Numbered from the stretch's first letter, positions 4,030 through 53,149 are shown. The stretch is DNA of 64,000 bases from Psammoneis japonica (GCA_008632985.1 QPGO01000057.1:186001-250000), one strand, 5' to 3'. Program-made: numbers and translations. Notes: generated by a model from the letters alone, not told the origin.

Positions 4030-5360
4030 CTCGATAATCAAAAACAGATGCTGAAGAAAATATGATTGAATGAGAAAGCCAATCCAGATCCATAGATAGA
4101 TTCACTGCTGCTTCACGATTGGCTGTTGGCGGTTGGCGTTGGCGCTGTTTCCTGAATTTTCTTACAGATGAATGACGTGGTGCGTGGCGCAGTTGACCGT
4201 TGCGTACAGTAAGAGCTATGGTACACAGCATTGTATTGGTAGGGTCCTACGTCACTTTGACGTATGAAAGTCGCTCGTCCGACCGGCGTCCGGTCGGAGG
4301 GAGAATGCTCTAAGTATTTTGAAATTTTGACAAAATGTCATTTCTACGTCGTGTTCGAATATATTTCTACAGCGAAAGTGTTTCTGGGATCCGGCTTCAC
4401 TTTTTGCTTTGCTCGCTGCCCGCCGATCCATCAACGGGATTACCATACGGTGTTACCGAGAAGACTGACACTACTTCGCACAAAAAAAAGAAGACGACTA
4501 CAAAAGACGCAATACGATGGTAAGTGCATTGTTAAAGCAAATAACACTAACCTTGATTCTATTCTTTTTTCTGCTTTCGAAAGCGGTTGCTTACCTTCCG
4601 TTCTTCTCGTTGATATCGTCCTTTGCAGACTTCGACTACATTCACGACATTTCTTCTTTTTGCACTGGCGATGGTTGTATGGGGAAGGCGCCCGCACATA
4701 CACCGTGGAGGTGCCCGTGTCCGCGAACAAACTATGTCGGGACGAAGACTCGAAACCGCAAGAGCTGTTAACGGATATCCCAGCAGGCGCCAAAACAAGC
4801 ACAATTTGCATCGTATGAAAGGGCCTCGTGGGAGCCGTCGCGGTATGGCTGACAACCGTCCTTTTTAATTCCAAAGCGAAACTTTGAATTCAGTTTCACA
4901 AGATACCATACAGAGAATGCAACTTTTTGCAAAAGAAGCTGGCACACTATAATATTTCAATGAACAGTAGTAGCAAGCACTCATACAGTAATACTAAGGA
5001 AGGGCATTAGATTTGATTCTCTCTTTGGATCGTAATTTCAATCCGTGCTTTCTTTTGATTACTTGCTACTGTACCGATGCATCATCCTTTTTCGTTGTCG
5101 GCAGATGCGGTCCTGCAAGATCCTCATCACCGAGGTAGGAAAGATGAGAGACATGAGTGTGAGCATGTCGCGCAACATAGGCCTAGGGGCCTAGGCCCCT
5201 ACACACCCTTCATACCGTCACCAGCCACACACATGCGCTGCCAGTGCGACGCACCCGCACACCGCGCACCGCCGATGCTGCAAAACCCGCAACTATTAGT
5301 AGGGCCTACCTATTTCCAACAACATTAGAGGGTTCGCAGTGCGTTGCACATATCACAAAG

Positions 5361-5900
5361 ATGATCAAGGGTATAATAATTGTCAACAATCACGGGAAGC
5401 CTCGCTTAGTAAAGTTCTATCAGAGCGTGACCTCGGAGGCGAAACAACAGAGTGTGATTCGTCGAGTCTTTCAACAGGTGGCGCAGCGCCCCGACTCGTT
5501 TTGCAATTACTTGGAGGGAAGCATCCCAGAATGGGGCGAAAACATCAAGCTTATATATCGACACTACGCGACTCTGTATTTTGTGTTTGCGGTGGACTCG
5601 CAGGAGAGCGATTTGGGTATTTTGGATTTGATTCAAGTCTTTGTAGAAGCACTCGACAAGTGCTTTGAGAATGTTTGTGAACTGGATTTGATTTTCCACT
5701 CTGATAGGGTTCACTATGTACTTGACGAGGTTGTCATGGGAGGAATGGTATTGGAGACCAACATTGGTAGCGTGTTGCAGGCTATAAAAGATCAAGGAAA
5801 GATGCATTCTGACTCTCTCTCCAAATCTGACGCAGGCGAATCTGCAAGCGAAATTCGAGAACGACTCGGTGACAATTCCAAGTGGTCCTATAATTGGTAA
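5361..5900 (+). CDS. AP3S: Adaptor protein complex AP-3 sigma subunit
   Basis: MIKGIIIVNNHGKPRLVKFY...LIYRHYATLYFVFAVDSQESDLGILDLIQVFVEALDKCFENVCELDLIFH...GGMVLETN is the sigma-3 adaptin signature. Confidence 0.93.
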   Translation: MIKGIIIVNNHGKPRLVKFYQSVTSEAKQQSVIRRVFQQVAQRPDSFCNYLEGSIPEWGENIKLIYRHYATLYFVFAVDSQESDLGILDLIQVFVEALDKCFENVCELDLIFHSDRVHYVLDEVVMGGMVLETNIGSVLQAIKDQGKMHSDSLSKSDAGESASEIRERLGDNSKWSYNW

Positions 5901-5935
5901 ATTATCGAAAGAAATATAATATGCTTCTTGTTTCT

Positions 5936-7189
5936 CTATCTGTCATTGTCTTCTCCAATCATCCTTAGAATGTACAAAAAGATGTTGATGATGTCATTGT
6001 ACAAGGACATTGCGCCAAACACATAGTCCTTCTCGTTCATTTGGAATTTGCTGTGTTTTCCGCCCACAATGAGCTTGGTATGATAAGCCAAGTAAAACGA
6101 AAAGAGTCCAGCACCGAGAAGAGAGTATACAGATTCTCGATAAGGCAAGAATCCTTGTGGCAAGACGCCGGTTAGTTCCAACAAGTGGACGAGACCATAA
6201 ACAAGAAAGATCATTCCCACTCTGACAGCAAAGAAACAAGATCAGTTCGTGAGCATTTGACCAAGATTAGCGATAAGATGAAATGTTTCTCTCGTCTGAT
6301 ACTCACGATGATAGTCCCATTCCCCATTGTGATAAATCGTACTTGGGATTCTTTTGCATGATCGTGTAGAGAGACACGCTCGTGGTTGCAACTGCTGTTG
6401 CCAACATGGCGGACACTACTGACTGGAACTTGTACAGGCTAGAGATAAAACCAATTGAAACAGATTCTCCAGCAGTAAAGAGTGCCAACAGTTGCCACTT
6501 CATTGGTGACTCGTGTCGTGCTCTCGGAGACGAGCAAACAATAAACCATGCAATGGTTGAAAAGACCAAGGATACCAGTGGTACTGTCGCAAGTGTAATG
6601 TGAGTGTTGATAAGAGTAGGTTTTAAAGTCTGCAGGATACTGAACAAAAAGGAAACATACCAAATGATCCAGCGTTACGCATCCAAGCTGATAGCCCAGG
6701 GTTGAGTCCGAAATAGACAATGGAGAGCGCAGTGACCAGCAACTGCCCCGACAGGATCGCGTAAACCCGAGCTGAGAAAAGAAAGAAACACAGAATGAAC
6801 GTATAAGTTCCCTTCTGCATTGAAACTTTGTTTTCTGCCATCAAAAGTAACGGACGTCAACTTCAGCACGTACCGATAAAGGTATTTCTCGATTCTCTTG
6901 TCAAAAAGGAGTTAAGCATTTCCTTAGTTTCTCGTCTATTGTCGATTTGTTCTTCGTCGTCATCTAAATCTCGAACCACGGGATATCTTTGCTGCTCCTG
7001 TTGACGGATCCCCAAGGGTGATGAAGACCATTGCTGCGGCTTCCCTCTTGCGCCTCCGCGAACAAAAACAGTAGGAGGGACTCGAGTGTACACAGTACAA
7101 GCGTGTCGTGCTTGACATGGACGACCAAGGCAGAGAATAAGCGCCAGGGTGGTAAAAAACGAAATTCGTTCTACAAAGCACCTAAACAT
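5936..7189 (-). CDS. Bax inhibitor-1 / lifeguard (TMBIM) family membrane protein, about 4 exons
   Basis: Exon pieces RNTFI..RVYAILSGQLLVT, WQLLALFTAGES, YSLLGAGLFSFYLAYHTKLIVGG...DYVFGAMSLYNDIINIFLYIL (TMBIM di-Asp region), separated by GT-AG introns. Confidence 0.88.
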
Positions 7190-7379
7190 GGGCGCGTTGA
7201 ACTGAGGCCTAGCGGGAGGGGAATGCAGCTTCCTCTATTGTCTCTACTCTAGCTGTGGGTGATATGTACTTCTTGTTCTTGGGATCCGCTCATGCATCAA
7301 AGGCGATATCGTGTTTTCGTGTTGGCATCATCGCGTGTGGCATGCATGGCCGCGTGAAGCGAGCGCGACGCAGATAGTT

Positions 7380-10300
7380 GTGTGATTGCGCTGCCCCCGC
7401 CATCACCCATCACGCCACATCAACCCGGGTGGAGCTCGGACAGTTTGGAATTCGGCTGGGCTGCCTGACGGCATGTCTTCAATGGTCCCTTCTCCATCTT
7501 GTGGAATGAGGCCCAGCTGTCTCTCAGTTGTTGGACAATGGTGGATTGTCTCACCAGAGTCATTTGGTCTCAATGCCGGGGCCATCTGCTTGACGCTCGT
7601 GATGATGACACTCATGGACATGACTGGAAAGCCACCAGAAAGCCAGCACAGCATTGTGGTGCAGAAACTGAATTGAAGGTGACACACTGGTCAGCTGATG
7701 ACTTGCACTTGGCAAGGGGTGGAGGGTGTGCACCCACTTGCGACACTCACTTTTCATGAGATGATCTCCCACTCACTCAGTGCACAGCAGGTGTGTTGGG
7801 AAACTGGTTGGCCACAGCAAAGCCAATGTTCAAGTTGAGCATTGGGGGGGGGGGGGGGGCAACAATTTGCTGCCAGAGGCACGTGCACCATTGCCAGTTG
7901 TTTTTGTGCATCACAGCCATTTGTGACACATTTCCGTGCTTGGCCAGAACAGCACTGATGACCACATGTTCACAATTTTCACATTGTCCTGTGCTGTTTT
8001 TTACCTCACATGTGGTCAAACATTTTTCACATGTTTTTGAAGTCACCTGTGGCACTTTCATGGTTGTTCAAACATCTTGTTAAGAGCAGTTTCATTTGTT
8101 CACTTTTCTGTTTGTTTTGTTTTTTTTCCATTGGACGCTGCACAGCTTGTCCTCCAATCTGACACGCAATGATGACAGTGTGGCACAGCCCTGCTGCAAA
8201 CCACTCTGCTGTTCTGGTCTGACATCTCACAACAATGATGAGCATGATGCTCTCTGCAGACATTTTCAAAGGGATCTCCCTGCCCCAAAATTCTTCTTTC
8301 TTCCATTTTGGCCTGGACAGCACACCTCCTTCCACTGTCAGCTCCTCAGGGGACAATGCTGCCTTGTGACATCCTTCAGGAGAGGCATTGAACAAGTGTG
8401 CAGGAGTGTGCTGACCTGTCAAAGACAAATGAAAAAACATGGTTGTGAGTTGGGAAAAGAGTGTTCAAAGCAGATGAAGAAAACAACAACATGGTCACCT
8501 TCAACACCCAAATCACAGAGTTGTTTGTGCTGTGGTGTGTCTTGAAGACACTGTCCTGGGCAGCCACAAACAAGGTGCTGCTGGCCTTTGGCAGAAGAGT
8601 GCAATTGATTTGGTTTCAAAGGTGAGCCACAAAAGTGCTTCAATCTTGATTCACGACAGCCAATGCCATGGGGCCCACCTTCTTCCAAAACCTCGCACAA
8701 ATGGGAGCTGTGTTGCAGCGATTGTTTTTGTCCATGAGCGCATGTTCCCAAACCATGATTGCAAAGAGAGAGACTCTGAGTTCACACCAGCATCAAGGAG
8801 TGATTGGCAATTTGTGGTGCTTGCCATCTCTGTTTTGACAGAAAACCAAGAGAAAAAAGGAGGTCTCAACCAACCTTTGATTTGCCCACTTTCTGAAGAA
8901 AGTGGTTCTCCAAAGTGATCATTTTGTGGGCATGAAGTGTCCATTTCTGGGCTTTCTGGAGAGATGTCATCACAGCATTGTTGGCAGCAATTTTTTCCTT
9001 GTTGGCGTTGGGTGCTTGTTTGGCAAATGGGAGCAGAGCTTTTCCTGTTGTTTTTTGCATGGGCTGTGCATCTGCCAGTGAACTGACAGCCACATTTTGC
9101 ACCCCTTGTGGGACAAGTTGTTTGGGTTGAAAATGCATGGAGAATGATGCTCAGATGTTTTGAGCAGGTCTGGCATCTTCAAGGAAGAAATTTCATCACG
9201 ATTCATGAGAAAAGTGAGATCTTCAACTGGGGTTGCTGGAAAATGTGGGCCATCTGTGTCATTGGCCGGGGAGGCAGCGGCTGCACAGTTGATGGAGACA
9301 ACAGTGGCAACAGCAGCTGCTGGGTTGTTGGCAGCTGCTCATTGTTTCTGATGGCTTGTCCAGGTGCCTTGCACAGGAGGTTGACCATGAGATCAATGAC
9401 CAGCCCTGCCTGCACCACCACCACCATGACCAACAGCACTGGAGTGGGTGGAACTGCAGTTGCGTTCACCACCTTTACAGCCATGAGTGGCTCCACAAGA
9501 GTTGTTGCAAAATGGCACCATTGTGATGATGCACCAAAAAGCAACATGGTTGCAAGGGAGTGAACCAGGTTGCAAAGATTGCAAGTTGCACCTCTGAAGT
9601 TCTGGGACATTGAAAGAAGAGGGCATGCACCAGCATGACTGTGAAAATTTCCATCTCAACAAGAGCACATTGATGTGGCTAAAAATGAGATGTCAGCCCA
9701 CCCCAGACACAAAAATGCAATGAATCTGATTCAACAGTTCTTTGCACACAGCTGTGAAATTGTGCAACAGTTTGCAAATCAAAAATGTCAAACAGGCAAA
9801 AAACCTTGATGATTTGTTCAAGTCAGCTCAAATTGACAAAACTCTCAAAAGTGAATGTGAGCACATTTTAAAAAGAGCTCCACTTGAAAAGTGACACAGA
9901 CATGAATCACAAGGCCAACTGGTGGCTCAGCATCACCGTGAAAAACAAATCATCATTGCCTCGCATGACACAAAATGCAAAACACAGGACTTGTCCAACA
10001 CGCGCTGACAACAATGCAAACAACTGGCGCTTTTGCCAATCTCAATCATGCTCAGATGTGTTGACACACAAGTCAAGCACAAAGAGACATCAGCGCTGCA
10101 GGGGGGTGCACAAAGGTGAACAGAAGAAGCTGTGTGTGTGAGAGACTGATTCAAAACAAAATGCAAACAAAACTCAGATCTGCCACATGCTCTTTTTTCT
10201 TCTTGCAGGTGAAGTTTTAGCCACCCTGGCATGATGAACAACAGCGAGGTCGTCACAATGAAACAAACACTGGCAAGTCACAAGCTTCATTCATTGTCAT
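7380..10300. repeat. Unclassified degenerate repeat/TE-derived sequence, TpA- and CpG-depleted
   Basis: Same compositional signature as the adjacent copia. ORF-track peptides are Tyr-free and C/H/M/Q-rich, with no recognisable domain. Confidence 0.5.
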
Positions 10301-13300
10301 TCCCCACTTTGCCCATCACGTCAATTGCAAACAAAAATGAGTCATGCTGAAATCTCATGTCTGACAATGAGAGCACTCACTTGCCCCATTGATTTGCTTT
10401 TGCATTGGTGGCGCTGCTCTCAATCTAATTTGTGCATGCCACAATTTTTTTTCTGCACTGAATCTTTTTTTGTCCCCTGTTTCCTGCTCTTTCCTCTTTG
10501 CTTTGTGGGCCCTTCTGCCAGGAGTGCTCCCATCATGATCACACCAATTGTGAAAGACCCTTTGGTTGCAATCAACAAGCTCTTGTCAAGAACACAGAGT
10601 GCTTGTCAAGCACAGAGATCAACCCAAAACAAGAGCAACAGTGTTTTGCGAACTGCCAGCATCGGGACAATCCAACAGATGTCCAGGACAGATGACAATT
10701 GTGTGCCAGATGAGAAAGAAAGTGAGCAAAGGAGAGATCATCAGATCTCTCCATGCTGTCCACACCAGTCTGTCTGACACAAGGGAGTGCACTCCCCCCA
10801 TCTCGGATGTCTGCCACCCTCCCCTGATGAGCAAGCAATGCAGTGCTCATCAAGAAAGCAAGAGACAATCCAAAGAACAAAAATGAGGACCAGAGCAGCA
10901 GAAAAAAAGTGAGGACAAAAAAAAAATTGCCCAAGACTTGATCCACAAACACAACAACAATCAACAGCAGTGTCCTGTCAAGCGGCGGGCATGGCGGGAA
11001 TGAAGCATCCAACCCACAGCCTTGGTCAGTGCATCAGCAGGGTTGACGACACCCGGAATGTGTTGAGTGACAATTTTTCCTGCATTGCGTCAGTCTTGGA
11101 TTGCAAAATGTTGAACGTCAATGTGACGGGATTGCTCCATGGGCACCTTGCTGTTGATCATCTGAGTGGCAGAGGAGCCATCAATGTGCGGGGGAGTGGG
11201 GTCGTGCTGGGGGAAACCCAGCTCCTGGAGCACCATCCTGAGATGCAAAGTCTGCTTTGCACCAGCACCTGCTGCAAGAAATTCAGCTTCCATGGAGCTG
11301 GCAGCCGCAATCATCTGCACTCAACATCGGCAATCAATTGCAGCACCAGCAAGGACATGTGCATGTCCGGTGGCAGACTGCCAATGCCAAAGTTCATTGG
11401 CATGTGCTGCATCAATGAAGCCAAGAAGTTGGAAAAGATTGTCAGCATGAGGAAAATCTGGAAGGGATGGATCATCCTCTGGCCAATCAAAGGAACAAGG
11501 AGGAAGACATGGGTCACACTTGGACTTCTTGTGCATCAACCCCCAATGCTTGGTGCAGCACAAATGCTTGGCCATGCACTTGAGAGATGCACAATGGATC
11601 TCAGCTGGAGCTTTGGAGAACTTCAACAAAGCAACAATGGGATGACCAACACCCAAGCAACAACACAAGCAGGCAAAAACCAGCTCACCCAAGACAGACC
11701 AACAAGAGAAGCCCTGAGATTTGGAGAGGGCATCGTGCTCCAGAGCACCTTCTGCAGGACCTTTGGTGGCGTGCAAATCAGTGGTTCAATCAGCCGGCAC
11801 AGGAGCAGCCTTGAAGTTGGTGTCAGACTCATCTGCAGCAGGAGTGGTGTCCCACCCATGAGTCTTGAAGACATGATCAAGGCAACTTGCAATGTTGGTC
11901 GTGACTGAGTCATCATTCTGAACAACATCAATTCCATTGAATTCAGTGACCAAACCCAAATGCTTGAACGGGGGGCATCTTCATTCTCCATCTGGAGCGC
12001 CTTTCCAACATGGTCACAATCTCTTTTGAAAGCTTCTCCGACAGACAAGCAAGTGCAAAATCATCAACCTGATGGAGCAAGAGAACCTTTTGACACCATC
12101 ACATTCACCTGAATGGGCACACTTGTCATGTGTGGCATTGCAGAAGAGAAGCTTTGCACCCATTGGAATCAAGTTGATGTGCTTTTCCCAAAGTGCACCA
12201 GCTTCAGGGTGACCTTGGAGGGCATGTTTGAGCAGAAGAACACAGTGGCGGGGGGCACTTTCTTGCCAAAATGTTTTTCATGCCATGCAGCACATGCATC
12301 ATCAACAGCAACAAAAACAGGTTGTGAAGGACCAGGAGAACAAGCACAAGCATCCCAAGCATCGCCGCTGCAGATGTGATGTGACATGGCAGCATTGAGA
12401 GCAAAAAACATCTTCTCAATCGAGTGTTCCACAAAAGAAGAGCACGTGGAAGTCAGTTTGTGCAATGCTGGCACAGCCATCTTGGATCCATCACCACATT
12501 GTTGAGAATGATGCTGTCCATCTGGTCTCACCATGCAACCCCAATGTGGGTGCACAACATTTGCTCCAGGAGGTCATGGTTGAGGAGGATCACACACACC
12601 AAGTGCATGGAATTGATCCAATTGACGCTTCTCTCCTTCTTCCCATTCTGGCCATGTGTCAAGCTTGTGCAGCTTGGCACGGGCAAGATGATCAAGGGAA
12701 GCTTCTTCCGGAGTGACAGCACGGGAACTGATTGCGTGAAGATGGGCACACAAAAAGCATCTGTTGGAACAGCCTCATCAGAGAAGCCATCTTCTGGGCA
12801 GAGAACAGCCGCAATGGATTGCACGTCCTCCAAGGCAAGTTCAGGTGCATGGGAATCATCCTCCATCAAGGCAGGATCAAACAGCTCCCTTCCTCAAATG
12901 CTTTTTTAAGAGTTTGGGAGTCCAAACGTCTTTCCAGTGCAAAAGTGATCTCAAAAGTTGGAGTCCATTTGTGGAAGTCAAGACCCACGATGGAGTGCAG
13001 CTTCAGCATCTTTTGGTGTAAAGACTTTGTGCTTGTTGACAGAGACAACATGTGCACCCATGATCTTGTTGCAAGCAGCACAAAGCGATGAGAACAGGGA
13101 GGCCACAGGACTGCACTGCCTGATTTCAGATGCACAGACATGATCCATTGATGCACACTGGGAGAAACCAAAGCCACAGGTGGGATCCATGGGAGGGTGT
13201 TTCATGACACAAGCAACAGTCTTGGCAAAAGGATTCAATGAAGAAGTGAACATGGGAACAGTTGTTTCCTGTGTTTCAGCTGGAAAAGGCTGACCATTTT

Positions 13301-16300
13301 CCACTCATTGCAAATGAGTGGCATTCAGAGAAAGCTGAACAATGACAAGTCATTCATGCCTTCATCATGCTGTGCATGCTTGGCCATCTTGACTTTGTCA
13401 GTCTCAGGATCCCACCAAAGAACATGTTCTTCAAGGTGTTTGGCAGATGACCAAGGAGTGCACCTTTCTTCAAGTTTGTCCTGAACGTGGCTGGATGAGC
13501 AGAAGATTGTCAAGGGTGATGGGAGATGCATCTTGATCTTTGGCAGGAGCAGCATTCTTGGTGTGGAGGCAATGGCAAAAAGCACAGGGCCAGAATTGGA
13601 TTGAGAGGTTGGCACCAATTAAAAAATTGTGTGAGTCACGTTCTCAACAGTTGAATGTGAGTGTTCAACAGGACCACATTGGTTGGATGCACCAGCATCA
13701 GAAACACATGTGTCACACTGGAATTCTCATTCAAAGAGGCCACAAACTTTGGGGTTCTTGTGCAATTCCCCACCTTGATCCACAAACACACATTTGTCAT
13801 GACAGTTTGGTGAGTGTCAATCCAAGAATCGGCAAAGCCACTTGAGAGGACTGGCTTTAGAGACCCGTGCAACACCATGGAGCATGTGCATTTTATGACC
13901 ATGCACAGTGATCTCCAACATGTTTCATCATTGAAACCCAGACAGTCAGACTTGCGCGGTCATCATTCTTGGAAGCCTGACCAGCAAAAAAAAAATCCAC
14001 AGCAAGGCCTTGGCATTGCTGAGTCGCCTTGTGGGTTGCATCAGGTCCATCAGGCGTCTTGACTTGTTTTGCCTGAACACACATTGGACAAACATCAAGG
14101 ACTGGGTTGGCATGTTGGAACTTGGGGACCCCTTTGACACACTTGCAAGCATTGTGCAAGCAATGGTTGCTGGGATGTCCAAGGCAGTGGTGCCACAGTG
14201 AACGTTCAGTCTCAACTTTGAGAGAACGGACCAGAGGAGAAGCAGGCAATGGTGATGAGACTTCATCAAGAGAATGACATTGCATCAAAAACAACTCAGC
14301 ATCCATCACAAGGGTGTCTGTTGGAGCTTGTTGGACATTGACACAGAATGCAGCACGTTGGCGTGCATCTTGAAGATCATCACCCCAGGTTGGATCGGAC
14401 GTTGGAGGTGCTGGACAGGCAGCAGTCTTGGAGGGGGGGACCAAAGGTTGAGCAAAAACCTTTCCATGACAAAGGACACCATGAACTGCTGCCTCTTGGG
14501 TGTCAGTTGAAGCAGCACATTCATCGTGGGACCCCACAAATGCGGAGGGACCCGCAACCCGGAAATGTGCAGAGTTCTACGTGAATGTGTGGGGACTGTT
14601 CACGCAGGTTTTGCACCAGAGCCATCTCGCGAACTGGGCGTTTTTTCGGATTTTTGTCGTAGAAACTGTGCCAGTTTTGCGCATGTAGGCTACATGTTTC
14701 AGTGCCACATACAAAAATTCGCGTAGAGCTCTACAGGAGGGTCCCTCCGCATTTGTGGGGTCTCACGATGAACATGTGCAAGCACTGTCAGCACAGGTCT
14801 TCTCAAGGAGCTTGGAGCAAATGGCATGTGGTTTAAAGCCAGAAGCCCACACAAAATCGCATTCATCAATCAAAGTGGAATGCAGGCTTGGGTGGCAAAA
14901 GGTGCGCGCAAGGAGAAAACCATCTGCATTCTCTGCGGGTGCTTGCATGCAACCACAGCCATGAGGAACCACATCAGAACCTTCAGCAGCAGGGAGCATC
15001 TTCAAAGGACAGGGATTGTCCGGTCCAAATGGAGTGCAAGCATGAAGAAGGTTCTCATCTCCTGCATGGGATGCCCAAGCACCAGCATCAATCTGTGCAT
15101 GGCATGTCATTGAATCTTGGAGCACATGATTGATGGGGACAATGGGGGCATTCAATGATTCAAAGGTTGCAGGTGAATCCAGAGGAGAAAAAATCGGGGA
15201 GATGTGCGCAGCACTCAATGGCGACAAGTGTTGATGGGCAGTCATGTCAAGGCACTCAAATTCTTGGTCTTGAGCAGTGGACAAAGGGGTGTCCACATCT
15301 TGTGCAGGGGATTCATGAAGAATGGGTTCCCTCCCCTGATTGATGCTGTCAGGGTCATCACCCGGAATTGTCTTGACATCCGGAGTGCTGGCCTTTGTCC
15401 AATCCGAAAGAAGATTTGCAAATGACACACGTGAAAGAGGCAATTCAGTGGAAGGCAACAAGTCAGGTAGACCCTCTTTCACAGTCACCCCACTTGCAGG
15501 AGTTGGTGTCAGATTGGAGGGAGACAGGTGGCATTGTGCACCCAAACACAACAACGGCCCTGGGAAAAATCCTTCTTGGTCTTCTCAGCCTTGAGCACAT
15601 CTTGAGCATGCCAACAATGGCCCCAGGAAAAATCCTTCTTGGCTGTGTCAGACTTGAGTGCATCACAAGCACGCTGATCATGTTGAAGAAACTGGGAGAA
15701 CCGAATGAGGTGAGCATGCAAGCACTCAGCATTGTTTGGTGTGGGACACTCATGGAACAAGTGGCCATCACCACAGACAACACAGGGGCGAGTCTGTGCA
15801 CTGTGCAGCAGCAGGTGATGCCTTGATCCTGCAGACACAAGCCTTGCAAATGTCACACAGTGCTTGCACTTCATCATCTGGTGGAATGTCCACAGGCAAG
15901 CTCATTCACAAAGCACTCCACAGCATCTGGAAGCACTTCTGCAGGAGGGGGATTGGTTTCCTTTGGGGGGTTCTTCAACAACAGGGGGTGGATCAGATGA
16001 TTTGTCTGCAGGCAGCAGCAAGTTTAGACCTCAAACAGGAGCTGCAAGAGAAGGATTTGCTGGGGGATGAGGAGTCCTGATTGTGGAGACAATGTGGAGG
16101 ACACTTGGGAGGATCCTTGGTGCAAAGAGCAGGACTGTCCAGTTCCTTGAGGACAGTGCCAATGGTCTCAACAATCTTCTTCTGCGCAAACTTGTGTTGC
16201 TTGTTCTTGTCTTCTCGAGCATCTGCTGTTTTGCAGTGCAGATGCTCTCCAAGTTGGGTGTTGCTGAGAAAAACATCCAGCTCACCAGGGTCATCAAGGG

Positions 16301-18250
16301 AAGCATCAACATTGGAGATGATCGCCCGCAGCTGAAGGAAGTCCCTGAAAAGAGCATTGTAACTGAGAATCATGAGATTGTTCTGGTGCAGGCAGCTCTT
16401 GATCAATTCATGTGGATGCTTCATCCAAATTGGAAGGATGTCAAATGGGGTCATCTTGAGGGTGGCACATCAATCTCCATGGCACTGGCAAACAATGTCA
16501 GGGCACTTGGAGTCAGCTGGAAAAATCCCAACTTTCTGGATGTGCTGGAAAACAGTCAACTTCATCCAGTCAAGTGGCACTTGCATGCGAAGTGGCAGAT
16601 CATCTGCAGGATCATTGCCACTTGTGAAACCCCAATTTCCACCATCCTTGACAAAACACCAGAGAGGATCCATGTGTGTGTGCCACAAGCCGAGGCTTGT
16701 TGGGTTGCGGCAGCATGCCATGCATGGATTCCTTGGGGAAGATGTCATCACACAAGTGAGAGGATCATGCAGAAAAGACTTGTCATCCCAATTGGTGCAA
16801 TGGACAAAGAGAGAACCATCAGTGAGGATGAGACATTCTGCACTGTCTTTGCAACAAACATTTCCAGACTTGCAGGGTGTTGGTGATTTCCCTGACACCA
16901 CCTTGCCCACTTCCTTGCATTGACAGCAAGCCAGCGCATCCTTTGGAAGTCCTTTTGGATCAAAGGTGTGCACAGCACTGGTTGCAGTTGAGGCAGAAGC
17001 TGCAGCAGTTGCAGTTGTGGTGGAAGGTGCAGAAGATGGTGCAGGAGGAGCAGTCTTCTTCGATGCATTGGCCACAGCTTGCTCAAACTGTTTTGGACCA
17101 GGTGGGTGAGTGGCCAAGGCCTCGGCAAAGTCTTCAGGAGTCACACCTGCAGCGGCAGCCAGTGGAGGTGCAGGACTTGGAGCAGACAGCAATTTTGGAT
17201 GTGGAGTGTCAGAGATGTTGTCCCAACAATCACAACACTGAAAACCAGGACAGAAATGGAAACGCAGAGTCTCAACACATGCTGTCATGGTGCCCTCGTT
17301 CTCTGAGATTGCTTTGATCACAGTCTTCTGAAGATCGCTGAGGTTCAGACAAACTGGAGAACCTCAAGGGGTGGCCACAAAGAGAGGAGCCTTGTCAATG
17401 ATCGGTCTGATTTGTGCAAGATCTTCATGTTGATGCTTTGATGCACACGCCATTTTTGTTGACCATGGCAGAAGCTGGCATGCTTTGGCTTTCAGGAGCC
17501 TGGTGTTTTGTGCATGACATGGATCTCTTCTCTTGCTGGTTGCCTGCACTGCTTCTGCACATTTGGACTCTGCACACACTTCACTTGTTTGGCAGAACTC
17601 AGCATCTGAGCTTCTTTGGTGTGCTGAGATGTGTTGATGATGCAGGGGGCATGAATTGAAGTGCCGGCATTTTTGAACTTTTTGGCTTTTGTTGTGAGCA
17701 GTGCACAATGTTCTGCAAAAAATGACAGGCAGCTCTCCTTCCAGTGTGATGGAAAAATGAAGCAGTTCATTGATTTGGTGCTCCCATTGCCCCACAAACA
17801 ATGCTGAAAAACCAGAGCTCACAGTGCAACAATGGAGCGACCCCAGCACAAACAACAAGCACTTGGTGCACAGCACATGCAATGGCAGGTGGCAACACAG
17901 GGGAAAAATGGCAACCGCACATGTCCCAAACACAACAATGCATTTTTGACAAGTGAGCACACGTGCTTGTGCAGCAAATCTCAGCGGCATGTCGCATCTC
18001 AACCTCTGAAGGTGTGTGCTGATGTGCAGAAAAAGTGAGAGAGACACACAAGGAGGGGGGCCAACACGAGTGTTCACCACAGTTTGCAGGCAACAAAGTG
18101 GCACTCACACACTGTGTCAAACAGCAAACACATGTTGATGGGTTTGTGTGTGGGGGTGTGTGACTTTGGCAAGTGAATGTTCGTCCAATGCGAGTGTGAA
18201 GTGCTCCGATGATTCTGTTGTGCGTGATGTGTCTCGGCCAACGGACGGAC
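10300..18250 (-). mobile_element. Degenerate Ty1/copia (CoDi-like) LTR retrotransposon, gag-PR-IN-RT-RH; ends approximate
   Basis: Minus-strand domains in copia order: gag-like (16-17.3 kb), protease QIDAGA (~15.09 kb), pre-integrase LWHHCLGHP...CPMCVQAKQ (~14.1 kb), RT ALQGHPEAGALWEKHIN and LLLHQVDDFALAC (~12.05-12.2 kb), RNase H SSMEAEFLAA...SRHIDVQHFAIQD (~11.1-11.3 kb). A polypurine tract AGGGGAGGG followed by TG lies at ~10.82 kb. Many frameshifts and TGA stops; a matching LTR pair was not found. Confidence 0.93.
14521..14771. mobile_element. MITE (251 bp) with 33-bp TIRs and ACAT target-site duplication, inserted in copia pol
   Basis: TCATCGTGGGACCCCACAAATGCGGAGGGACCC (14521-14553) is the reverse complement, with 1 mismatch, of 14739-14771. 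ACAT flanks both sides (14517-14520, 14772-14775). Removing the element rejoins the copia frame (...DSACTC|AASTDTQ...). Confidence 0.9.
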
Positions 18251-18294
18251 GTGGACTTGTATTTTCTTCTTCTCATTTCTCATTCCCTCCAACC

Positions 18295-23334: not shown

Positions 23335-25158
23335 TTACTCGCCGAACGGCTTTCTCGCAACAACGCACACGCGAGCACAAAGCTTGTTCATGTCGTATTC
23401 CTCCAAATGCTCATAATCTTTGCTACCTACATGAACGGTGCTTCTGTCTGGGTTCATATCTGAAATCTCGTCATTCTCTTCTTCAGAAAGCTCATACGCC
23501 ATGAGAGAATCACTGTCGTCTATGACAACACTCTCAAATCCAATCTTCTTGCAAAGCGGAAGCAGCTGGTTCAGGGGAATGAACATCCTCATGCAGAGTG
23601 GCCAAGTAACTCCGTCTTCCAGTTCGTCCACCTTTAGCGTTGACGTGCAAATTGAACACCGGCCTCCTGGCTTCAGGACACGGAAGATTTCTCGAAAAGC
23701 CTTTTCCTTATCGGGGGCAAGACAAAACGCCCCGTTGGAAATAACAACGTCAATCGAGTTGTCCGGCAACGGGATTGCCTCCATGTCTGCGACCGCAAAG
23801 CGAATGTCTAGGTCACGCCTAGCTGCGCATGCTTGAGCGTGTTCCACCTCTTGTTTGCTTATATCAATGCCAACGACCTTTCCTTCATCTCCTGCGTAGT
23901 GGCTCGCAATGAAGGAATCAATACCCAAGCCAGAGCCAACATCCAAGACACGTTCTCCCCTTTGTATTTTGGCGTGCAAGTGCGGATTCCCTACCCCCTG
24001 AAAGTTGTACGCGTCTTTTCCAGCAACCTCAAACTCTTCATCGGTATAACCTAGACTCGACATGATGGCCTTTGCTCGCTTCATGTTACCCTCTAAATGA
24101 GCCGTCTCACCGACCTTGTTGTAGGCTTGAGCAGTTTCCTCCTTGGCAACTTCGTCCTCGAGGCGAAAAACATACAAAAAGTCGGCAGGATTCGACCCCG
24201 GCGGTCCAAAGGCATCCTGGATATCCTTTGCCACGGCGTCCTGATCATTCACATCCACATGAGTTGCGTGAGAAAGCACCAAGCAGGTTTCATCCACAAG
24301 CTCTGGATGTCGCTCAAGCACTCGATCTGGAACCCCTTGATAATGCATAAGGTGTCCGTTCCCCGCAATCACTAGAAATCGCTCGTCTTTTTCGCTCTTG
24401 TCCAATAGACCATTGATCTTGTGTGCCATGGCCACGTCCTTGAGTACCTGCGCTTTGAAGATGCCACGAAACTGATCGCTGGGTGGTTTCGGATTCTGAA
24501 AAAGCGAGCGTCCGCTAATGAGGCTTTCAAACACATTGTAGTGAAAGTCGTTCCCGGCCAACATATTTGTAGTTTGTGACGGCAAGAATTCAGAAGCAGC
24601 CTTTAATGCTGCTGGTTCTCCTTCTCTCATGAGTTGTCTCGCAAAGGTTCTCGATAGAAATCCCGCGTGTAAAACAATTTCCTTCTTGTTTTCCCTAGCA
24701 TGCTCCAAGAGCGGTCGATATGGCTGCAAGTCGTGGTTCTCTGTTCCAATGCGTTTGTATTGCACCAGCAATTCATCAAAATCAATTTGTTCCTCTTGAT
24801 ATTGTCGAAGCAGTTCTTGCATCTCAAAGCTAAAGTGTTCGAGTACGACGTGAAGTCTGGATGATTCACTGCGGAGCTTTTCTTGAATTGCCAGTTGCAG
24901 CGCGACAATCGGAGACATGGAGTGTATTTCTCCAACAAAAATCAACTTGTGCTGTGCTACTTGGTCCAAAAAGGAAAATCGATCATAGACGTGACCAAAG
25001 TTGTTGGCAGCCGACGACTTGATGTGGTGCGTCGTCTGGGTGTTGTCGCCATTCAAGTGCGAGAACTTTTCTCCAACGTCCGTGTAGAGACTCGGTGAAG
25101 CACGAACTCCCACAAACATCTTGTAGGCAACCTCCGAAAGAGACTTCCACTTCAACAT
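23335..25158 (-). CDS. Fusion: ChaN-like (Tiki/EreA superfamily, haem-uptake) domain plus arsenite-methyltransferase-like class I SAM methyltransferase
   Basis: N-half LIFVGEIH...LEHFSFEMQ...Y.PLLE.AR...AQVLKDVAMA...VIAGNGH..YQGVP is ChaN-like. C-half FQGVGNP...GERVLDVGSGLGID...VVGIDIS...IPLPDNSIDVVISNGAFCLAPDKEKAFREIFRVLKPGG is ArsM/AS3MT-like. Start placed at MLKWK. Confidence 0.8.
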   Translation of the reverse strand: MLKWKSLSEVAYKMFVGVRASPSLYTDVGEKFSHLNGDNTQTTHHIKSSAANNFGHVYDRFSFLDQVAQHKLIFVGEIHSMSPIVALQLAIQEKLRSESSRLHVVLEHFSFEMQELLRQYQEEQIDFDELLVQYKRIGTENHDLQPYRPLLEHARENKKEIVLHAGFLSRTFARQLMREGEPAALKAASEFLPSQTTNMLAGNDFHYNVFESLISGRSLFQNPKPPSDQFRGIFKAQVLKDVAMAHKINGLLDKSEKDERFLVIAGNGHLMHYQGVPDRVLERHPELVDETCLVLSHATHVDVNDQDAVAKDIQDAFGPPGSNPADFLYVFRLEDEVAKEETAQAYNKVGETAHLEGNMKRAKAIMSSLGYTDEEFEVAGKDAYNFQGVGNPHLHAKIQRGERVLDVGSGLGIDSFIASHYAGDEGKVVGIDISKQEVEHAQACAARRDLDIRFAVADMEAIPLPDNSIDVVISNGAFCLAPDKEKAFREIFRVLKPGGRCSICTSTLKVDELEDGVTWPLCMRMFIPLNQLLPLCKKIGFESVVIDDSDSLMAYELSEEENDEISDMNPDRSTVHVGSKDYEHLEEYDMNKLCARVCVVARKPFGE

Positions 25159-25674
25159 GGTCTTGAATAATACTGCAAAGAGAAAGCGCGTCTCAGATTT
25201 GCTCAATATTCGATGCGGCTCACCTCCAGAACAGCGAACACTACGAAACAATAGAGAATACCAAAAGCGGGTGTCAACTGCGGCCGGGTGAGTCAACCTT
25301 GCGTTCTGCGTTCTGGTTCTGCGATCTTATCCCGCGATCTTTCACCTCGCGCGGTGAACTCGCGAGTGGACGACTTACTCGACTCCTCTGTTTGTTCAGG
25401 ATCAGTCGAACCGTCAACCGTACGGTCATTACGATCGTGGATATGTTGAATAATCAATCCTTATGAATGAATAAATACAGTCATCGCGGTCACAAGTTTG
25501 AGTGCCGATCGGTACTCGCCGGCCGTGCGACGTGCGACGACTCAACCATGCTCATCCAAAGAATTAGGCGAAGCTGGAAGCGCTACATATTCATACACAT
25601 CGAACACAAGGGTTCTTTGTTGCTATCACAGTAGGTCGTATGCTTGTTTGCTCGCAATAGATATAGCCTCAGTG

Positions 25675-28226: not shown

Positions 28227-28533
28227 CCTGAAGCTGTCCTAGCTAGCTAGTAGTGTTCTTTTGCTCTATTGTTCCGAAACTTGCTTCCGACCTTGATGTC
28301 GGAGGGAAAAAATTCTTTCTCGCTCCGCGAGCTCGCTCTCTCGAAAATATAATTGATCTCATAACCTACCACGTCATTGAATTTCCGTTCACGTAGATTC
28401 AGTACCAATCTCCACAGTGAATGGGCAGACAGACAGTACTTTTGGCGCAATTTTTGGTCCGTCACCCCTCCGACCAAAAGCGGCAGGTCGAGAAAAGTGC
28501 AACTCCACTTCCTATCCACAATAATTGAGCACC

Positions 28534-30303
28534 ATGAGCGGATTCAACGCAAACGCAGCAGAGTGGAAGCCTTCGGCGGCTGCAGCGGAATGGACTCCTG
28601 CAGGAATGACAGCTCCAGCACCAGCTCCAGCGCCACCTCCGGCTCCTGCTCGTTCTGAATCACAAGAGTCAGTCATTGACGAATCAGATCCTCTGTGGCA
28701 AGTTGTTCTCAAGATTGCAGAAGGAGACCGTGAAAAGGCGCTCAAAATGATTGCTGATCCCGATTCTTTGACGCAATATCCAGAGGTAGAAGCCTTATTG
28801 GAATCTTCTGAAGCCATGGATGTAGACGATGACGAAGCAGTGGAGGAATTGGCAGAGGAAATACAAGAGAAAATGGCTGTAGAGGAAACACCAGAAAAAA
28901 AGAAGCCAGCGCCAGCAGCACCAAAGGCACCGCTGGAAGAGGTCCCGGCAGAAGAACTCAAAGAAGGAGACCCTCGCGAGCACCTGAATCTCGTCTTTAT
29001 TGGTCATGTTGATGCCGGAAAGTCGACTCTGTCGGGTAACATTCTCTACCTTACAGATAATGTGGATAAGCGTACGATTGAAAAGTACGAACGCGAAGCA
29101 AAGGATCTGAATCGCGAGTCTTGGTTCTTGGCCTTCATCATGGACACGAACGAGGAGGAGCGTGCCAAGGGAAAGACAGTTGAGGTGGGTCGCGCTCACT
29201 TTGAAACCGACGTCAAACGCTACACGATTCTGGATGCTCCTGGTCACAAGAATTACGTCCCAAACATGATTATGGGTGCCAGTCAGGCTGATGTTGGTGT
29301 CTTGGTCATTTCGGCACGAAAGGGTGAATTTGAGACTGGATTTGACCGTGGTGGCCAAACTCGAGAACACGCCATGCTCGCCAAGACCTTGGGTGTGTCG
29401 TATTTGGTGGTGGTGATCAACAAAATGGATGACCCGACTGTGCAGTGGAAGAAGGAGCGTTACGACGAGTGCGTCACCAAGATTCGCCCTTTCCTCAAGA
29501 GCTGTGGCTATGTCATTAAGCGTGAAGTCAAGTTCATCCCCATTTCGGGTCTGAGCGGAGCCAACGTGAAGGATGAGGTGGAGTCGTCCGAGTGCGCGTG
29601 GTGGAAACCGTCCTATACGGCGGGAGAGAACAACACAACCGCCGCTACGCTGATGAGTTTATTGGACTCGCTTGAAATAAAGGGGCGCGATTCAAACGCA
29701 CCGGTGCGAATTCCAGTTTTGGAACGTTATGTGGACCGTGGTACGATTGCCATGGGCAAGGTGGAGAGCGGTGTCATCCGACCTGGCATGAAAGTGACGC
29801 TGATGCCCACAAGAAACTCCTACAAGGTGGAAGGAGTCTGGGCAAACGAGGAACCCGTGGCGGCAGCGCGACCCGGTGAAAATGTCCTCATCAAGATTGG
29901 CGGTGGCTGTGGCGTGGAAGACGTGCGTAAGGGATACGTCATTTGCACCGACCCGCCTTGCCGAGCCGTGGACAAGATTATTTGCCACATGGCGGTGTTG
30001 GACATGCCAGAAAATACTCGTATTATGACTGCCGGTTTCCAATCCATCTTTCATGCTCATTGTTGTGAAGAAGAATGCACTGTTGTCAAGATCTTTGAAA
30101 CCACAAACAACAAGGGTCACGTACACAAGGGAGCCCGTTTCGCTAGTGTTGGGATGCGTGCCGTGGTCATGCTCGAACTCGCACGAACCGTTCCCGTTGA
30201 AACCTTTGACGAGATGCCCTTTTTGGGTAGATTTACGCTACGAACGGAAGGGAAGACCGTGGCTATCGGAAAGATCACGAAGCTGCCACCAAAGAAGGAG
30301 TAA
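28534..30303 (+). CDS. SUP35: Eukaryotic peptide chain release factor 3 (GTPase)
   Basis: N-terminal PAM2 motif FNANAAEWKP; GHVDAGKST, RAKGKTVEVGRAHFET, DAPGHKNYVPNMI, GGQTREHAMLAKTLGV, NKMDDPTV; C-terminal LGRFTLRTEGKTVAIGK. Confidence 0.96.
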   Translation: MSGFNANAAEWKPSAAAAEWTPAGMTAPAPAPAPPPAPARSESQESVIDESDPLWQVVLKIAEGDREKALKMIADPDSLTQYPEVEALLESSEAMDVDDDEAVEELAEEIQEKMAVEETPEKKKPAPAAPKAPLEEVPAEELKEGDPREHLNLVFIGHVDAGKSTLSGNILYLTDNVDKRTIEKYEREAKDLNRESWFLAFIMDTNEEERAKGKTVEVGRAHFETDVKRYTILDAPGHKNYVPNMIMGASQADVGVLVISARKGEFETGFDRGGQTREHAMLAKTLGVSYLVVVINKMDDPTVQWKKERYDECVTKIRPFLKSCGYVIKREVKFIPISGLSGANVKDEVESSECAWWKPSYTAGENNTTAATLMSLLDSLEIKGRDSNAPVRIPVLERYVDRGTIAMGKVESGVIRPGMKVTLMPTRNSYKVEGVWANEEPVAAARPGENVLIKIGGGCGVEDVRKGYVICTDPPCRAVDKIICHMAVLDMPENTRIMTAGFQSIFHAHCCEEECTVVKIFETTNNKGHVHKGARFASVGMRAVVMLELARTVPVETFDEMPFLGRFTLRTEGKTVAIGKITKLPPKKE

Positions 30304-40400: not shown

Positions 40401-40930
40401 TCTCTCAAAATCATGGTGATGTTTGTCGAGCATGACAAAATCCTTGGCTTTCTCATCAACAATTCCGGGGCACTTGGAGCAAACCGCGGCTGATCTTGGG
40501 GTTGCCGCAGAAGCCCCCACCAACTTTGTGACACATTGCGGCAAACCTTTGCTGTTGACTCCCTTTGTGTCATTAAAATCAAGCTTCAGCAGCTTCAAAG
40601 TTCCATCAAGCAACTGACAGACAATTCAACGTGAAAATCGTTCAACACTTTGGGGGCACAATTCATGACAACATCGGTCGGTTGCTGTGTGATGAAAAAA
40701 TCCTTGTCATTTAAAGAAGACAGAGACAAGGTGTCACTTGTCAAACAGTTGCAGTTGTTGAGTTGTGGGCCTCCAAATTTCACATGCCGTGGTGCGGTGT
40801 GTTTCTTTAGTGTCGGGTGCAGAGGTGTCAACTTGCAAATCAGCTTGCAACGGACGGTCCCCGGCTTGCATTTTCTTGGGAGTGCACAGATGAAATTAAG
40901 AAAGCCAGAGTGGAAGATACCTAAGCACAT
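37488..40930. pseudogene. Convergent (inverted) pair of degenerate paralogous genes or repeats, hypermutated
   Basis: Plus-strand TVHRTLICKLTSTPKKHTAPWCMKFGGPPIDDCNDFKSDT (~37.58-37.7 kb) matches minus-strand TVRCKLICKLTPLHPTLKKHTAPRHVKFGGPQLNNCNCLTSDT (~40.73-40.86 kb). The interior is TpA-depleted. Confidence 0.65.
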
Positions 40931-48694: not shown

Positions 48695-49050
48695 TTGGAG
48701 ACAACACGCCATCAAGCATGATGAGTTGTGGAACACCAAACAAGAGCTAGCTCTCTATTATCCGCAAGAAGGGCGAGCCATCCTGGGCGATCGCGGCAAT
48801 CGTTGCTTGGCGAACAACAACACATCGTGCGAGACAACGAGTTGTGAGTGAAAGAGCGCGAAAGGAAAAGCTTTCGAGAGATTTTGTGTGTCGTGACCGT
48901 TGCTAATTTTCTCAATCACTATCATTTTTGTGTATCTTTGTATAATCGATACCATCACTTCGTATGTAGAACATTCGTGAGATCTTGGTACTTTCAAAAT
49001 TATTACCAATTCCTACGTAAACTTTACGTAACGGTCCAAAACGCAAAAAA
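48695..49050 (+). repeat. Non-hypermutated copy of a dispersed repeat (partner at 52325-52670)
   Basis: Alignable by eye over ~350 bp (acaacac.ccatcaagc...gagattttgtg...ctcaatcact.tcattttt...ctttcaaaatt). Confidence 0.9.
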
Positions 49051-52000: not shown

Positions 52001-52199
52001 AGACCTTCAAATTACGATGGGCGAATCCAGGGTTCTTTGCGGATGGAGAGTCTCCCGCCGACATGGTCAAGAAGCACTGGAACAGTCATTGTGGCCGCAT
52101 GTGTGGCGGTGGCAGAGCTGAAGATGAAAACAGTGACGCTGAAATGGAAACCACTGAAAGCAAAATTCAATGCCACCACGAAGACCCAACAAAGAAATC

Positions 52200-52465
52200 T
52201 TGTGGAGCACCAAACAAGAGCGAGTGCTCAATCCAGAGGAAGGGCGAGCCATCCTTGGCAATTGCGGCATTCAAGCTTGGCGAACAACAACACAACGTGC
52301 GAGACGACGAGTTGAAAAAGAGAGACAACACACCATCAAGCAAAATGAGTTGTGGAATGCCAAACAAGAGCAAGCTCTCAATCCAGAGGAGGGCAAGCCA
52401 TCCTTGGAGATTGCGGCTTCCAGCTTGGCAAACAACAACACATCGTGTGAGATGACGAGTTGTGA
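52200..52465 (+). repeat. 150-bp tandem duplication
   Basis: tgtgga...caaacaagagc...ctcaatccagagga...gccatccttgg...gcttggc.aacaacaacac occurs at 52201 and again at 52351. Confidence 0.88.
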
Positions 52466-53149
52466 CCGAAAATCGAGTGCGAAAGAAAAACGCTTTCCGA
52501 GAGATTTTGTGTTGTGACCGTTGCTAAATTTCTCAATCACTGTCATTTTTGTGTGGCTTGGCAGAATTAATGCCATGTGTTCATGTGCAGAACATTCGTG
52601 GAAGTTGGTGCTTTCAAAATTGTCGCCAATTCCTGCGCACACTTTGCGGCAACCGCAGACGCATGCAAAAGAAAAACACTGCCAAGAGGCAGGTGTGACG
52701 CCTCTCAGGGAGGCGCCGTGCATGATGTGTGTTCACAAACTGGCCAGCCAATGAATCTCCCCCATGGGCAGCCCATCGGGCTCTCACAGCAAAGAGGCTC
52801 TTGGTGCCAGACAAAAATCAGCAGGCATCAAAGGAGGCATTTGTGTGATGCATGTGCTCTGGGAACAGGGAGCAGCACAAGTTCAAAGATGACTGCACTT
52901 TTCTGTTTTCCCATCAATGCACCCAGTGGATTCAATGATGAGCTGAGCAGCAGGAGGGCCTTGATGTTGCTCACGACATGAGACATGCTTGGCCATTTTT
53001 TGCTGCTTTCAATTGTTGCAGTCATTGGGCCATTCCAGTTGTCCGCAGCCACTTTGGCGAGGTGGCCTTCTTGCTCAGTCAGCAACGGGGAAAGGTGTTG
53101 ATGCCCAAAAGTTGATCCACTGGGGCTGGCAGCATGATGCTGCAGCAGC

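Follow-up and report, generated by a model that had tools for sequence, protein, structure and literature searches.

The window analyzed here is the whole stretch of 64,000 nucleotides from Psammoneis japonica (GCA_008632985.1, QPGO01000057.1:186001-250000), and is most probably diatom nuclear DNA with three region-confined stretches hypermutated at the DNA level, at least one of which is a dead Ty1/copia retrotransposon. In these stretches (blocks 1-3) TpA is nearly absent, CpG is scarce and CpA and TpG are in excess. The blocks were delimited with a scan of dinucleotide observed/expected ratios in 500-base windows, which gave the following limits.

7376-18260, no strand: block 1, a TpA/CpG-depleted, CA/TG-doubled hypermutated stretch of 10.9 kb
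38117-40574, no strand: block 2, hypermutated over a shorter length, its edges being gradual (about 37850-40900)
49444-59996, no strand: block 3, hypermutated over 10.6 kb and interrupted by an N gap (58730-59012)

Per 500 bases, and leaving aside the surroundings of an insert, block 1 had observed/expected ratios of 0.00-0.08 for TA and 0.07-0.33 for CG; the ratio for CA+TG was 1.6-2.05, and TA-free gaps were up to 2481 bases long. The corresponding ratios were 0.03-0.10 (TA) and 0.13-0.28 (CG) for block 2, and 0.00-0.13 (TA) and 0.00-0.48 (CG) for block 3, except for CG values of 0.81-0.82 at 51001-51500 and 52001-52500. For the counts below, the three blocks minus the insert and fuzzy borders (the inside set; 23,575 bases) were compared with an outside set of 39,021 bases. 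TpA density was 1.87 per kb inside versus 42.7 outside (about 4% of the outside density), and CpG density was 13.9 versus 55.4 per kb (about 25%). CA+TG rose to 222 per kb inside, from 144 outside, a gain equal to the loss of TA+CG. Pyrimidine-purine steps of all kinds occurred at 237.6 per kb inside, versus 241.8 outside. The skeleton of purines and pyrimidines has thus been left intact, and transitions alone are sufficient to account for the blocks. An ordinary composition profile is blind to them, because G+C content is unchanged. The left edge of block 3 was sharp (49443/49444, within a few bases), and the right end of block 1 lay about 36 bases short of the ATG of the next host gene.

The direction of change was established from repeated segments of which one copy lies within a block and the other does not. 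These are given below, together with a tandem repeat within block 3.

48697-49045, plus strand: unmutated copy of a duplicated segment of about 350 bp, 400 bases outside block 3, with normal TA and CG; a proxy for the ancestral state
52321-52663, plus strand: counterpart of that segment inside block 3, sharing 80% identity with 48697-49045, or 90% in purine/pyrimidine coding
37557-37701, plus strand: left arm, unmutated, of an inverted repeat of about 150 bp bracketing block 2, with an 87% match to the right arm in purine/pyrimidine coding
40726-40879, minus strand: right arm of this inverted repeat, mutated in part, with CA/TG where the left arm has TA/CG
55956-58729, plus strand: two tandem repeat copies of about 1.36 kb in block 3, 73% identical, with a third partial copy at 59018-59545

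In the paralog alignments, the 24 TA sites of the unmutated copies corresponded in the block copies to TG (11), CA (6), TA (1), CG (1) and other dinucleotides (5), and the 38 CG sites to CG (11), TG (10), CA (9) and others (8). Retention was 30 of 38 for CA and 21 of 30 for TG. As the unmutated paralogs have TA or CG where the block copies have TG or CA, the blocks are hypermutated DNA rather than a quirk of composition, and the direction of change is from TA and CG to TG and CA. The mutated zone around block 2 ignores the inverted-repeat symmetry of the element bracketing it. The tandem copies of block 3, which are 73% identical in four letters, reached 84% identity in purine/pyrimidine coding; they had 28 CA/TG discordant sites versus 232 concordant sites, about five times the level of other double transitions, and this excess of discordance indicates that mutation occurred in situ, after the DNA was in place. 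The repeat as a whole (about two and a half copies, at 55956-59545) is interrupted in its second copy by the assembly N gap at 58730-59012. The two strands were changed about equally (2647 CA and 2583 TG in the blocks), and tests for runs of CA versus TG revealed no sign of processive one-strand editing in any of the three blocks (z between -2 and +2).

The nature of the mutated DNA could be recognized for the core of block 1, in which two features were found.

10970-15389, minus strand: remnant of a dead Ty1/copia-type polyprotein (in the order gag, integrase, reverse transcriptase, RNase H), interrupted by frameshifts and stops and identified by collinear tblastn matches
14515-14779, no strand: foldback insert of 265 bp, resembling a miniature inverted-repeat transposable element, with terminal inverted repeats of about 40 bp and normal TA and CG

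In one such tblastn match, residues 1-1277 of protein P0122 aligned on 14996-10970, and an open reading frame (ORF) at 13896-14576 on the minus strand matched gag_pre-integrs (E=2.3e-6). When the Copia ORF was compared with longer proteins by a word-based search, no matches were obtained. A full HMMER search with the same ORF retrieved 240 relatives, the long ones of which were Ty1/copia polyproteins; matching polyproteins carried the RVT_2, gag_pre-integrs and SH3_retrovirus domains, and the best named relative was from the diatom Cylindrotheca fusiformis. Judged from these alignments, the core of block 1 is the remnant of a Ty1/copia retrotransposon, with the domains in the expected order. 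Pfam scans covered 122 block ORFs of at least 90 amino acids, 74 minus-strand ORFs of block 1 (59 new ones of 40-89 amino acids and 15 re-scanned) and, for blocks 2 and 3, a further 100 ORFs of 55-89 amino acids. The gag_pre-integrs match was the sole relevant hit in these scans, the other weak hits having the appearance of chance.

Codon fates were scored at 620 columns at which the Copia relatives agree. Conserved Tyr was kept at none of 26 positions, being replaced by Cys (13), His (9), Phe (3) and Trp (1), and conserved Arg at only 11 of 46, the outcomes listed including His (10), Gln (7), Lys (5), Cys (4) and stop (2), with seven others. The block element nonetheless kept Gly (46/52), Pro (45/54), His (23/26) and Trp (13/17). 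The fates of Tyr (Cys or His) and Arg (His, Gln, Cys or stop) follow from the conversion of TAY to TGY or CAY, and of CGN to CAN or TGN (Y, C or T; R, A or G; N, any base). A further 6 kb of block 1, not part of the polyprotein, was changed as well. The arms of the foldback insert (14515-14553 and 14779-14739) were 92.7% identical, and its 265 bases contained 7 TA and 16 CG; it was evidently inserted later than the hypermutation, or is exempt from it. No second copy of this element was found within the window.

The original prediction held that the few TpA sites surviving at 8075-16365 are mostly YTAR, with few exceptions, and took this residue as a sign of an enzyme that prefers 5'-TAY, though not absolutely. 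All 13 of the block 1 sites that it named were present, within 1-3 bases. The interval contains 22 TpA in total, including 10 YTAR (8081, 9680, 9869, 10218, 10426, 12907, 13620, 13858, 14834 and 16025) and five YTAY or RTAR (9476, 13019, 13894, 15468 and 16360); the other seven cluster at 14578-14732, within the foldback insert of normal composition. The exceptions that had been named do exist, but those at 13019 and 13894 and the insert cluster of seven had been overlooked. The predominance of YTAR itself held over all three blocks: 29 of the 44 inside survivors were YTAR, versus 280 of 1666 TpA outside (Fisher p=1.5e-12), with 9 of 16, 5 of 7 and 15 of 21 in blocks 1, 2 and 3, respectively. 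The remaining inside survivors comprised 14 mixed sites and a single RTAY, at 18260, on the edge of block 1; outside, 883 sites were mixed and 503 were RTAY (RTAY inside versus outside, Fisher p=5e-6). Because the ancestral NTAN mix of the blocks must be represented by stand-ins, three were used: the window outside the blocks, the first-order Markov expectation from the blocks themselves and the majority sequence of a related Copia family (20 YTAR among 158 TA columns). The YTAR excess was also significant against the second (14.2 expected, p=6e-6) and the third (p=3e-16).

Uniform survival of the NTAN tetramers, the outcome that would have emptied the predicted motif of meaning, was strongly rejected by a half-site model, in which the TA of each strand, together with its 3' base, survives independently (2dLL=86.6, 3 degrees of freedom, p=1.2e-18). 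This model fits all 16 tetramers, with half-site survival of 0.66 for a 3' A, 0.21 for G, 0.10 for C and 0.02 for T. TTA or TAA was present in 39 of the 44 survivors, and the YTAR survivors consisted of 13 TTAA, 9 CTAA, 7 TTAG and no CTAG. The absence of CTAG was considered as a possible exception and dropped, as the half-site model expects only 2.45 such sites. A was also enriched at positions +2 and +3 of the survivors (51% and 40%, versus 26% and 27%), indicating that A-tracts protect. The predicted 5'-TAY preference is supported, with a correction: tests that make no use of survivors, described below, agree with it, and the preference is graded (TAT and TAC above TAG, and TAG above TAA), with no clean split between purines and pyrimidines. 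Survival was 2.2% for TAC and 0.5% for TAT, so a pyrimidine is preferred and C is not singled out; TAT being removed at least as well as TAC, the same holds for the T-A-C trinucleotide.

The first two tests free of survivors concern the polarity of the products. Among the paralog transitions, YTAY had become TG in six of six cases and RTAR had become CA in four of four, the strand carrying TAY being the one changed each time. Tyr codons with a 5' pyrimidine had yielded Cys nine times and His twice, and those with a 5' purine, which present TAY on both strands, Cys four times and His seven times. When the mixed contexts from paralogs and Tyr codons were pooled, the predicted polarity was observed in 19 of 21 cases (p=2e-4). 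Over the blocks as a whole, favoured and disfavoured products stood at 1600:1070 inside and 1587:1370 outside (p=2.4e-6).

The third such test made use of relatives of the Copia remnant. Of the 240 relatives, 150 were listed, and 10 of these, each at least 100 amino acids long, were Tyr-free, with raised Cys and low Arg contents; all 10 derive from metagenome assemblies. At columns normally occupied by Tyr, six of them had Cys (11), His (4) or Phe (4), and never Tyr. The scan of metagenome contigs yielded 80 loci with DNA, 59 of which could be aligned with a single family reference for 1000 bases or more. Between 3% and 69% of the TA sites of the family majority were read as TG or CA across these 59 copies. 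In the copy L034, 84 of 123 TA sites were changed, versus 0.039 transitions per other site, and TG and CA were nearly equal in number (42 and 42 in L034, 27 and 26 in L024). A competing-risk fit was applied to seven strongly mutated copies and then to 51 others, with L017 dropped because it is 92% identical to L027. The hit rates by 3' base were 0.22 (A), 0.57 (C), 0.31 (G) and 0.54 (T) for the seven copies, and 0.07 (A), 0.14 (C), 0.05 (G) and 0.13 (T) for the other 51. The rates for TAY were about twice those for TAR, and pyrimidines exceeded purines in 100 of 100 column bootstraps in both sets. The copies rich in TpA changes also had somewhat more transitions elsewhere (rho 0.65), a link that could be due to age, to mis-polarised subfamily differences or to weaker off-target activity.

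The loss of CpG, which amounts to about 75%, is a second process, separable from that of TpA. The region 51000-52500 of block 3 kept CpG at an observed/expected ratio of about 0.8, with a TpA ratio of 0-0.12. Four sharp edges were compared, and at three of them TA remained absent for 78-94 bases past the limit of the CG-poor zone (7375-7469, 18182-18260 and 59911-59996; chance of about 0.02-0.04 each), which suggests that the TpA and CpG processes have slightly different footprints. In the metagenome copies, CG loss ranged from 4 to 50% and was not correlated with TA loss (rho 0.14, p=0.28), and the same competing-risk fit revealed no 3'-base preference at CG. The region 51000-52500 contains the block copy of the 350-bp segment with an unmutated twin at 48697-49045. 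Surviving CpG favoured G/C flanks (GCGC 0.50, CCGG 0.48 and GCGG 0.47 of the outside density) and were scarce in A/T flanks (ACGA 0.13, TCGT 0.15 and TCGA 0.15). Methylated transposons are known to lose CpG by deamination of 5-methylcytosine. The fate of CG in the blocks (TG or CA at 19 of 38 sites) and the replacement of Arg by His, Gln, Cys or stop resemble this decay, which accounts for the CpG part only; the CpG loss would most simply reflect deamination of methylated CpG in silenced DNA.

For TpA, the process consists in an A-to-G change on either strand, yielding TpG or CpA. It has acted on both strands, site by site, on DNA already in place, and about 96% of TpA have been lost. Each TpA is hit most often on the strand on which it is followed by T or C, less often with G and least with A (especially in TAAA), a half-site preference that leaves TTAA, CTAA/TTAG and a few GTAA/TTAC as survivors. 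Mixed contexts give a predictable product, with YTAY becoming YTGY and RTAR becoming RCAR. The chemistry may be adenine deamination in DNA by a putative T-A-specific deaminase, as proposed for the chlorarachniophyte Bigelowiella natans, and the targets might be chosen through a mark of silent chromatin or foreign DNA.

Several results weigh against this reading, in whole or in part. No long terminal repeats (LTRs) were detected around the Copia remnant, either with a transition-tolerant alignment (score of 95, versus a shuffle mean of 103) or with a purine/pyrimidine BLAST search, in which nothing rose above the shuffled controls. No ORF of blocks 2 and 3 had a Pfam match and no recognisable content was found there; a transposon origin was seen only for the Copia core, the remainder of block 1 being, like blocks 2 and 3, without recognisable genes. 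The ancestral NTAN mix is assumed, through the stand-ins. The polarity of the Tyr codons by themselves was not significant (p=0.08), and the block-wide ratio of favoured to disfavoured products pools products derived from TA and from CG. The gain over the scaled outside count was far larger for TGC/GCA (818) than for TGT/ACA (424), although TAC and TAT were about equally common and nearly all removed; secondary T-to-C change at TGTA covers only part of the gap between TGC and TGT, for which the model does not fully account. The preference in the metagenome family was about 2-2.6 fold, versus window rates 4-9 fold above that of TAA, and, because a few dataset prefixes and a family tree are common to the metagenome loci, the cells of the fit are not independent. 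The sole sequencing run listed with the stretch is probably the source of the assembly itself, a point in favour of an artefact; no RNA run with it was listed. Finally, because of strand symmetry, adenine- and thymine-centred chemistries are indistinguishable by these counts.

A thymine-centred chemistry is accordingly the best placed of the alternatives, although we consider it unlikely. The T of R-T-A would be modified, for example by oxidation by a dioxygenase of the TET/JBP type, and would mispair with G, resulting in T-to-C change, of which A-to-G would be the opposite-strand view. As TAY is RTA on the other strand, all the counts fit equally well. A common basis for the losses of TA and CG might also be seen in T and 5-methyl-C, each of them a 5-methylpyrimidine at a self-complementary YpR step. 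Base excision from oxidised thymine is expected to yield more transversions, whereas 17 of the 23 changed TA in the paralogs had become TG or CA and were thus mostly transitions. The TA and CG losses are, moreover, uncoupled, and adenine deamination is preferred in the available text on B. natans (Mettrop et al., bioRxiv 10.64898/2026.01.13.699255).

Less probable still is a single bifunctional enzyme stripping the blocks of both TpA, by deamination of A, and CpG, by deamination of C. The two depletions occupy the same blocks, and the available text of the same preprint cites ADAT2 proteins reported to deaminate A and C. The evidence for separate processes speaks against such an enzyme: the region of block 3 that lost TA and kept CG, the TA-free zones extending past the CG-poor ones, the uncorrelated losses over the 59 metagenome copies and the absence at CG of the 3'-base preference of TA, to which may be added that CG loss is far less complete.

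The surviving TpA might, alternatively, not have been spared, but have arisen as new sites after the hypermutation, by mutation of CA/TG or by changes in A/T runs. Many survivors do lie in T-runs followed by A-runs, and one block TA aligned with CG and another with CA in the unmutated copy. Regeneration from the CA and TG of the blocks predicts 23.5% YTAR and 25.4% RTAY, whereas 29 and one, respectively, of the 44 survivors were of these classes (p=3e-9 and 8e-5). Product polarity and the metagenome rates, both obtained without survivors, rank the contexts alike, and one CTAA was common to the unmutated copy and the block copy. This explanation is therefore highly improbable.

We attach very little weight to an artefact of sequencing or assembly, through systematic misreading of the TA and CG of heavily modified DNA, the origin of the single run notwithstanding. 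Of the 31-mers sampled from 5001-15000, an interval that is block over three quarters of its length, 92% recur in contigs made from run X1. The Copia remnant also contains frameshifts, TGA stops and transversions, and block 1 encloses an insert of normal composition. Furthermore, 59 contigs from other assemblies bear the same signature at intermediate levels, and it recurs in proteins lacking Tyr in other collections. The process in B. natans was likewise seen with Illumina reads of mutation-accumulation lines, according to the available preprint text.

No more credible is RNA editing of the A-to-I, ADAR-like type, or editing of complementary DNA (cDNA) during reverse transcription, fixed by re-integration. 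Hyperediting by ADAR and editing of retroelements by APOBEC3 produce strand-specific clusters on RNA or on single-stranded cDNA. The blocks resemble these systems in having transition clusters, putatively deaminase-driven, in a retroelement copy, block 1 does contain a retrotransposon, and a 5' U/T preference is typical of ADAR. The strands are, however, about equally affected (Tyr to Cys 13 and to His 9, together with the CA and TG totals) and interleaved site by site, without strand runs, and the 3' G preference of ADAR was not seen. Furthermore, changes are found in blocks without retroelement genes and, in block 1, across 6 kb not belonging to the polyprotein, and the tandem copies diverged in situ. 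The 5' U/T preference of ADAR is also mentioned in the available part of the B. natans preprint.

Adenine deamination in DNA thus remains our preferred reading for TpA, and its closest known counterpart is the process in B. natans. In mutation-accumulation lines of this species, two integrated viral regions had 231 mutations, of which 230 were A-to-G/T-to-C, all at TpA; elsewhere in the genome, there are clusters poor in TpA and rich in CpA+TpG, genes poor in TpA are enriched in reverse-transcriptase and DDE domains, and an ADAT2-like DNA deaminase was proposed, as far as the available text of the preprint goes (Mettrop et al., bioRxiv 10.64898/2026.01.13.699255). This text has no occurrences of 'CpG', 'flanking', 'trinucleotide' or 'diatom'. 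Our literature search found no report of TpA hypermutation or of TpA-free blocks in diatoms, and this preprint was the sole precedent found. From what it describes, the process is shared in that A-to-G/T-to-C change at TpA gives TpG or CpA according to strand, is confined to particular stretches, which are foreign or mobile DNA in B. natans (integrated DNA of nucleocytoplasmic large DNA viruses, NCLDV, and virophages) and include a retrotransposon here, and leaves a long-term trace of TpA loss and CpA/TpG gain. The two cases differ in organism (a member of Rhizaria there, a diatom here), in extent (mild there, with 3.3% TpA in the NCLDV region versus 6.0%, and near-complete here) and in target, which here is an LTR retrotransposon and unrecognised DNA, with CpG depleted as well. 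The evidence also differs: TpA hypermutation of the B. natans type involves an elevated de novo rate seen in real time and episodic between lines, whereas the evidence here consists of sequence traces, and the 3-69% spread between metagenome copies is compatible with such a process but is not a rate. The diatom blocks are filed here with TpA hypermutation of the B. natans type, to which they add a CpG component and a flanking rule not described before.

Fungal repeat-induced point mutation (RIP), as described in the sources available, changes C to T mostly at CpA, creating TpA and removing CpA/TpG. It resembles the process described here as a region-confined hypermutation by transitions, akin to a genome defence, through which transposons are killed and a dinucleotide signature remains. 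The trace in the blocks is, however, the opposite one (TpA observed/expected about 0.03, CA+TG about 1.9), and RIP, set off by duplication, strikes both copies, whereas one 350-bp copy and one inverted-repeat arm are untouched here. A RIP-like trigger hitting all repeat copies was therefore not supported, though the repeats concerned are short.

TadA, from which DNA base editors have been derived, and ADAT2-ADAT3 are tRNA adenosine deaminases. Their natural target, A34, always follows U33 and thus presents the same T-A step. The loss in the blocks is likewise specific to TpA, with T directly 5' of the edited A. The motif of TadA-type enzymes is T-A-C, by contrast, and this trinucleotide was not singled out here, the metagenome rates being 0.57 for C and 0.54 for T. 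To our knowledge, action on double-stranded DNA over 10 kb, limited by chromatin, is not a known property of these enzymes. Some ADAT2 proteins have been reported to act on DNA, according to the available text of the preprint cited above (bioRxiv 10.64898/2026.01.13.699255).

Outside the blocks, the window contains ordinary eukaryotic genes in long open frames, including those for a clathrin adaptor small chain, an eRF3-type GTPase and TPR proteins. The GTPase (28525-30303) is 70-80% identical to diatom proteins (Seminavis, Ditylum, Cyclotella, Pseudo-nitzschia, Nitzschia and Bacillariaceae), and no exact match to it was found. A single ORF at 23335-25326, on the minus strand, encodes a ChaN/Tiki-type haem-binding domain fused to a class I S-adenosylmethionine (SAM) methyltransferase domain. 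The segment 62251-63065 is AT-rich (G+C 0.41), with observed/expected ratios of about 1.0 for TpA and about 0.5 for CpG, a composition contrary to that of the blocks, and also carries a 400-bp tandem duplication.

TpA-specific hypermutation of eukaryotic DNA is known from one preprint, of 2026, and the window shows a TpA process at completion, in a second, distant lineage and on a retrotransposon. It provides a fingerprint against which candidate enzymes can be compared: a 3'-base rank of T and C above G and of G above A, protection by A-tracts, product polarity, an absence of strand runs and independence from CpG. The signature for genome scans is equally simple, with no TA, few CG, doubled CA/TG, and an unchanged G+C content and purine/pyrimidine skeleton, and dead elements missed by ordinary searches can be recovered by purine/pyrimidine recoding or from translations free of Tyr and rich in Cys and His. 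We suggest, tentatively, that diatoms might defend themselves by chromatin-targeted editing of DNA, in which silenced transposons would lose TpA on both strands through an enzyme with a measurable half-site rule (TAT and TAC above TAG, and TAG above TAA), and that this might be the same system as that of B. natans, shared across the Stramenopiles, Alveolates and Rhizaria (SAR). If true, this would be an old genome defence, the mirror image of fungal RIP, writing CA/TG in place of TA.

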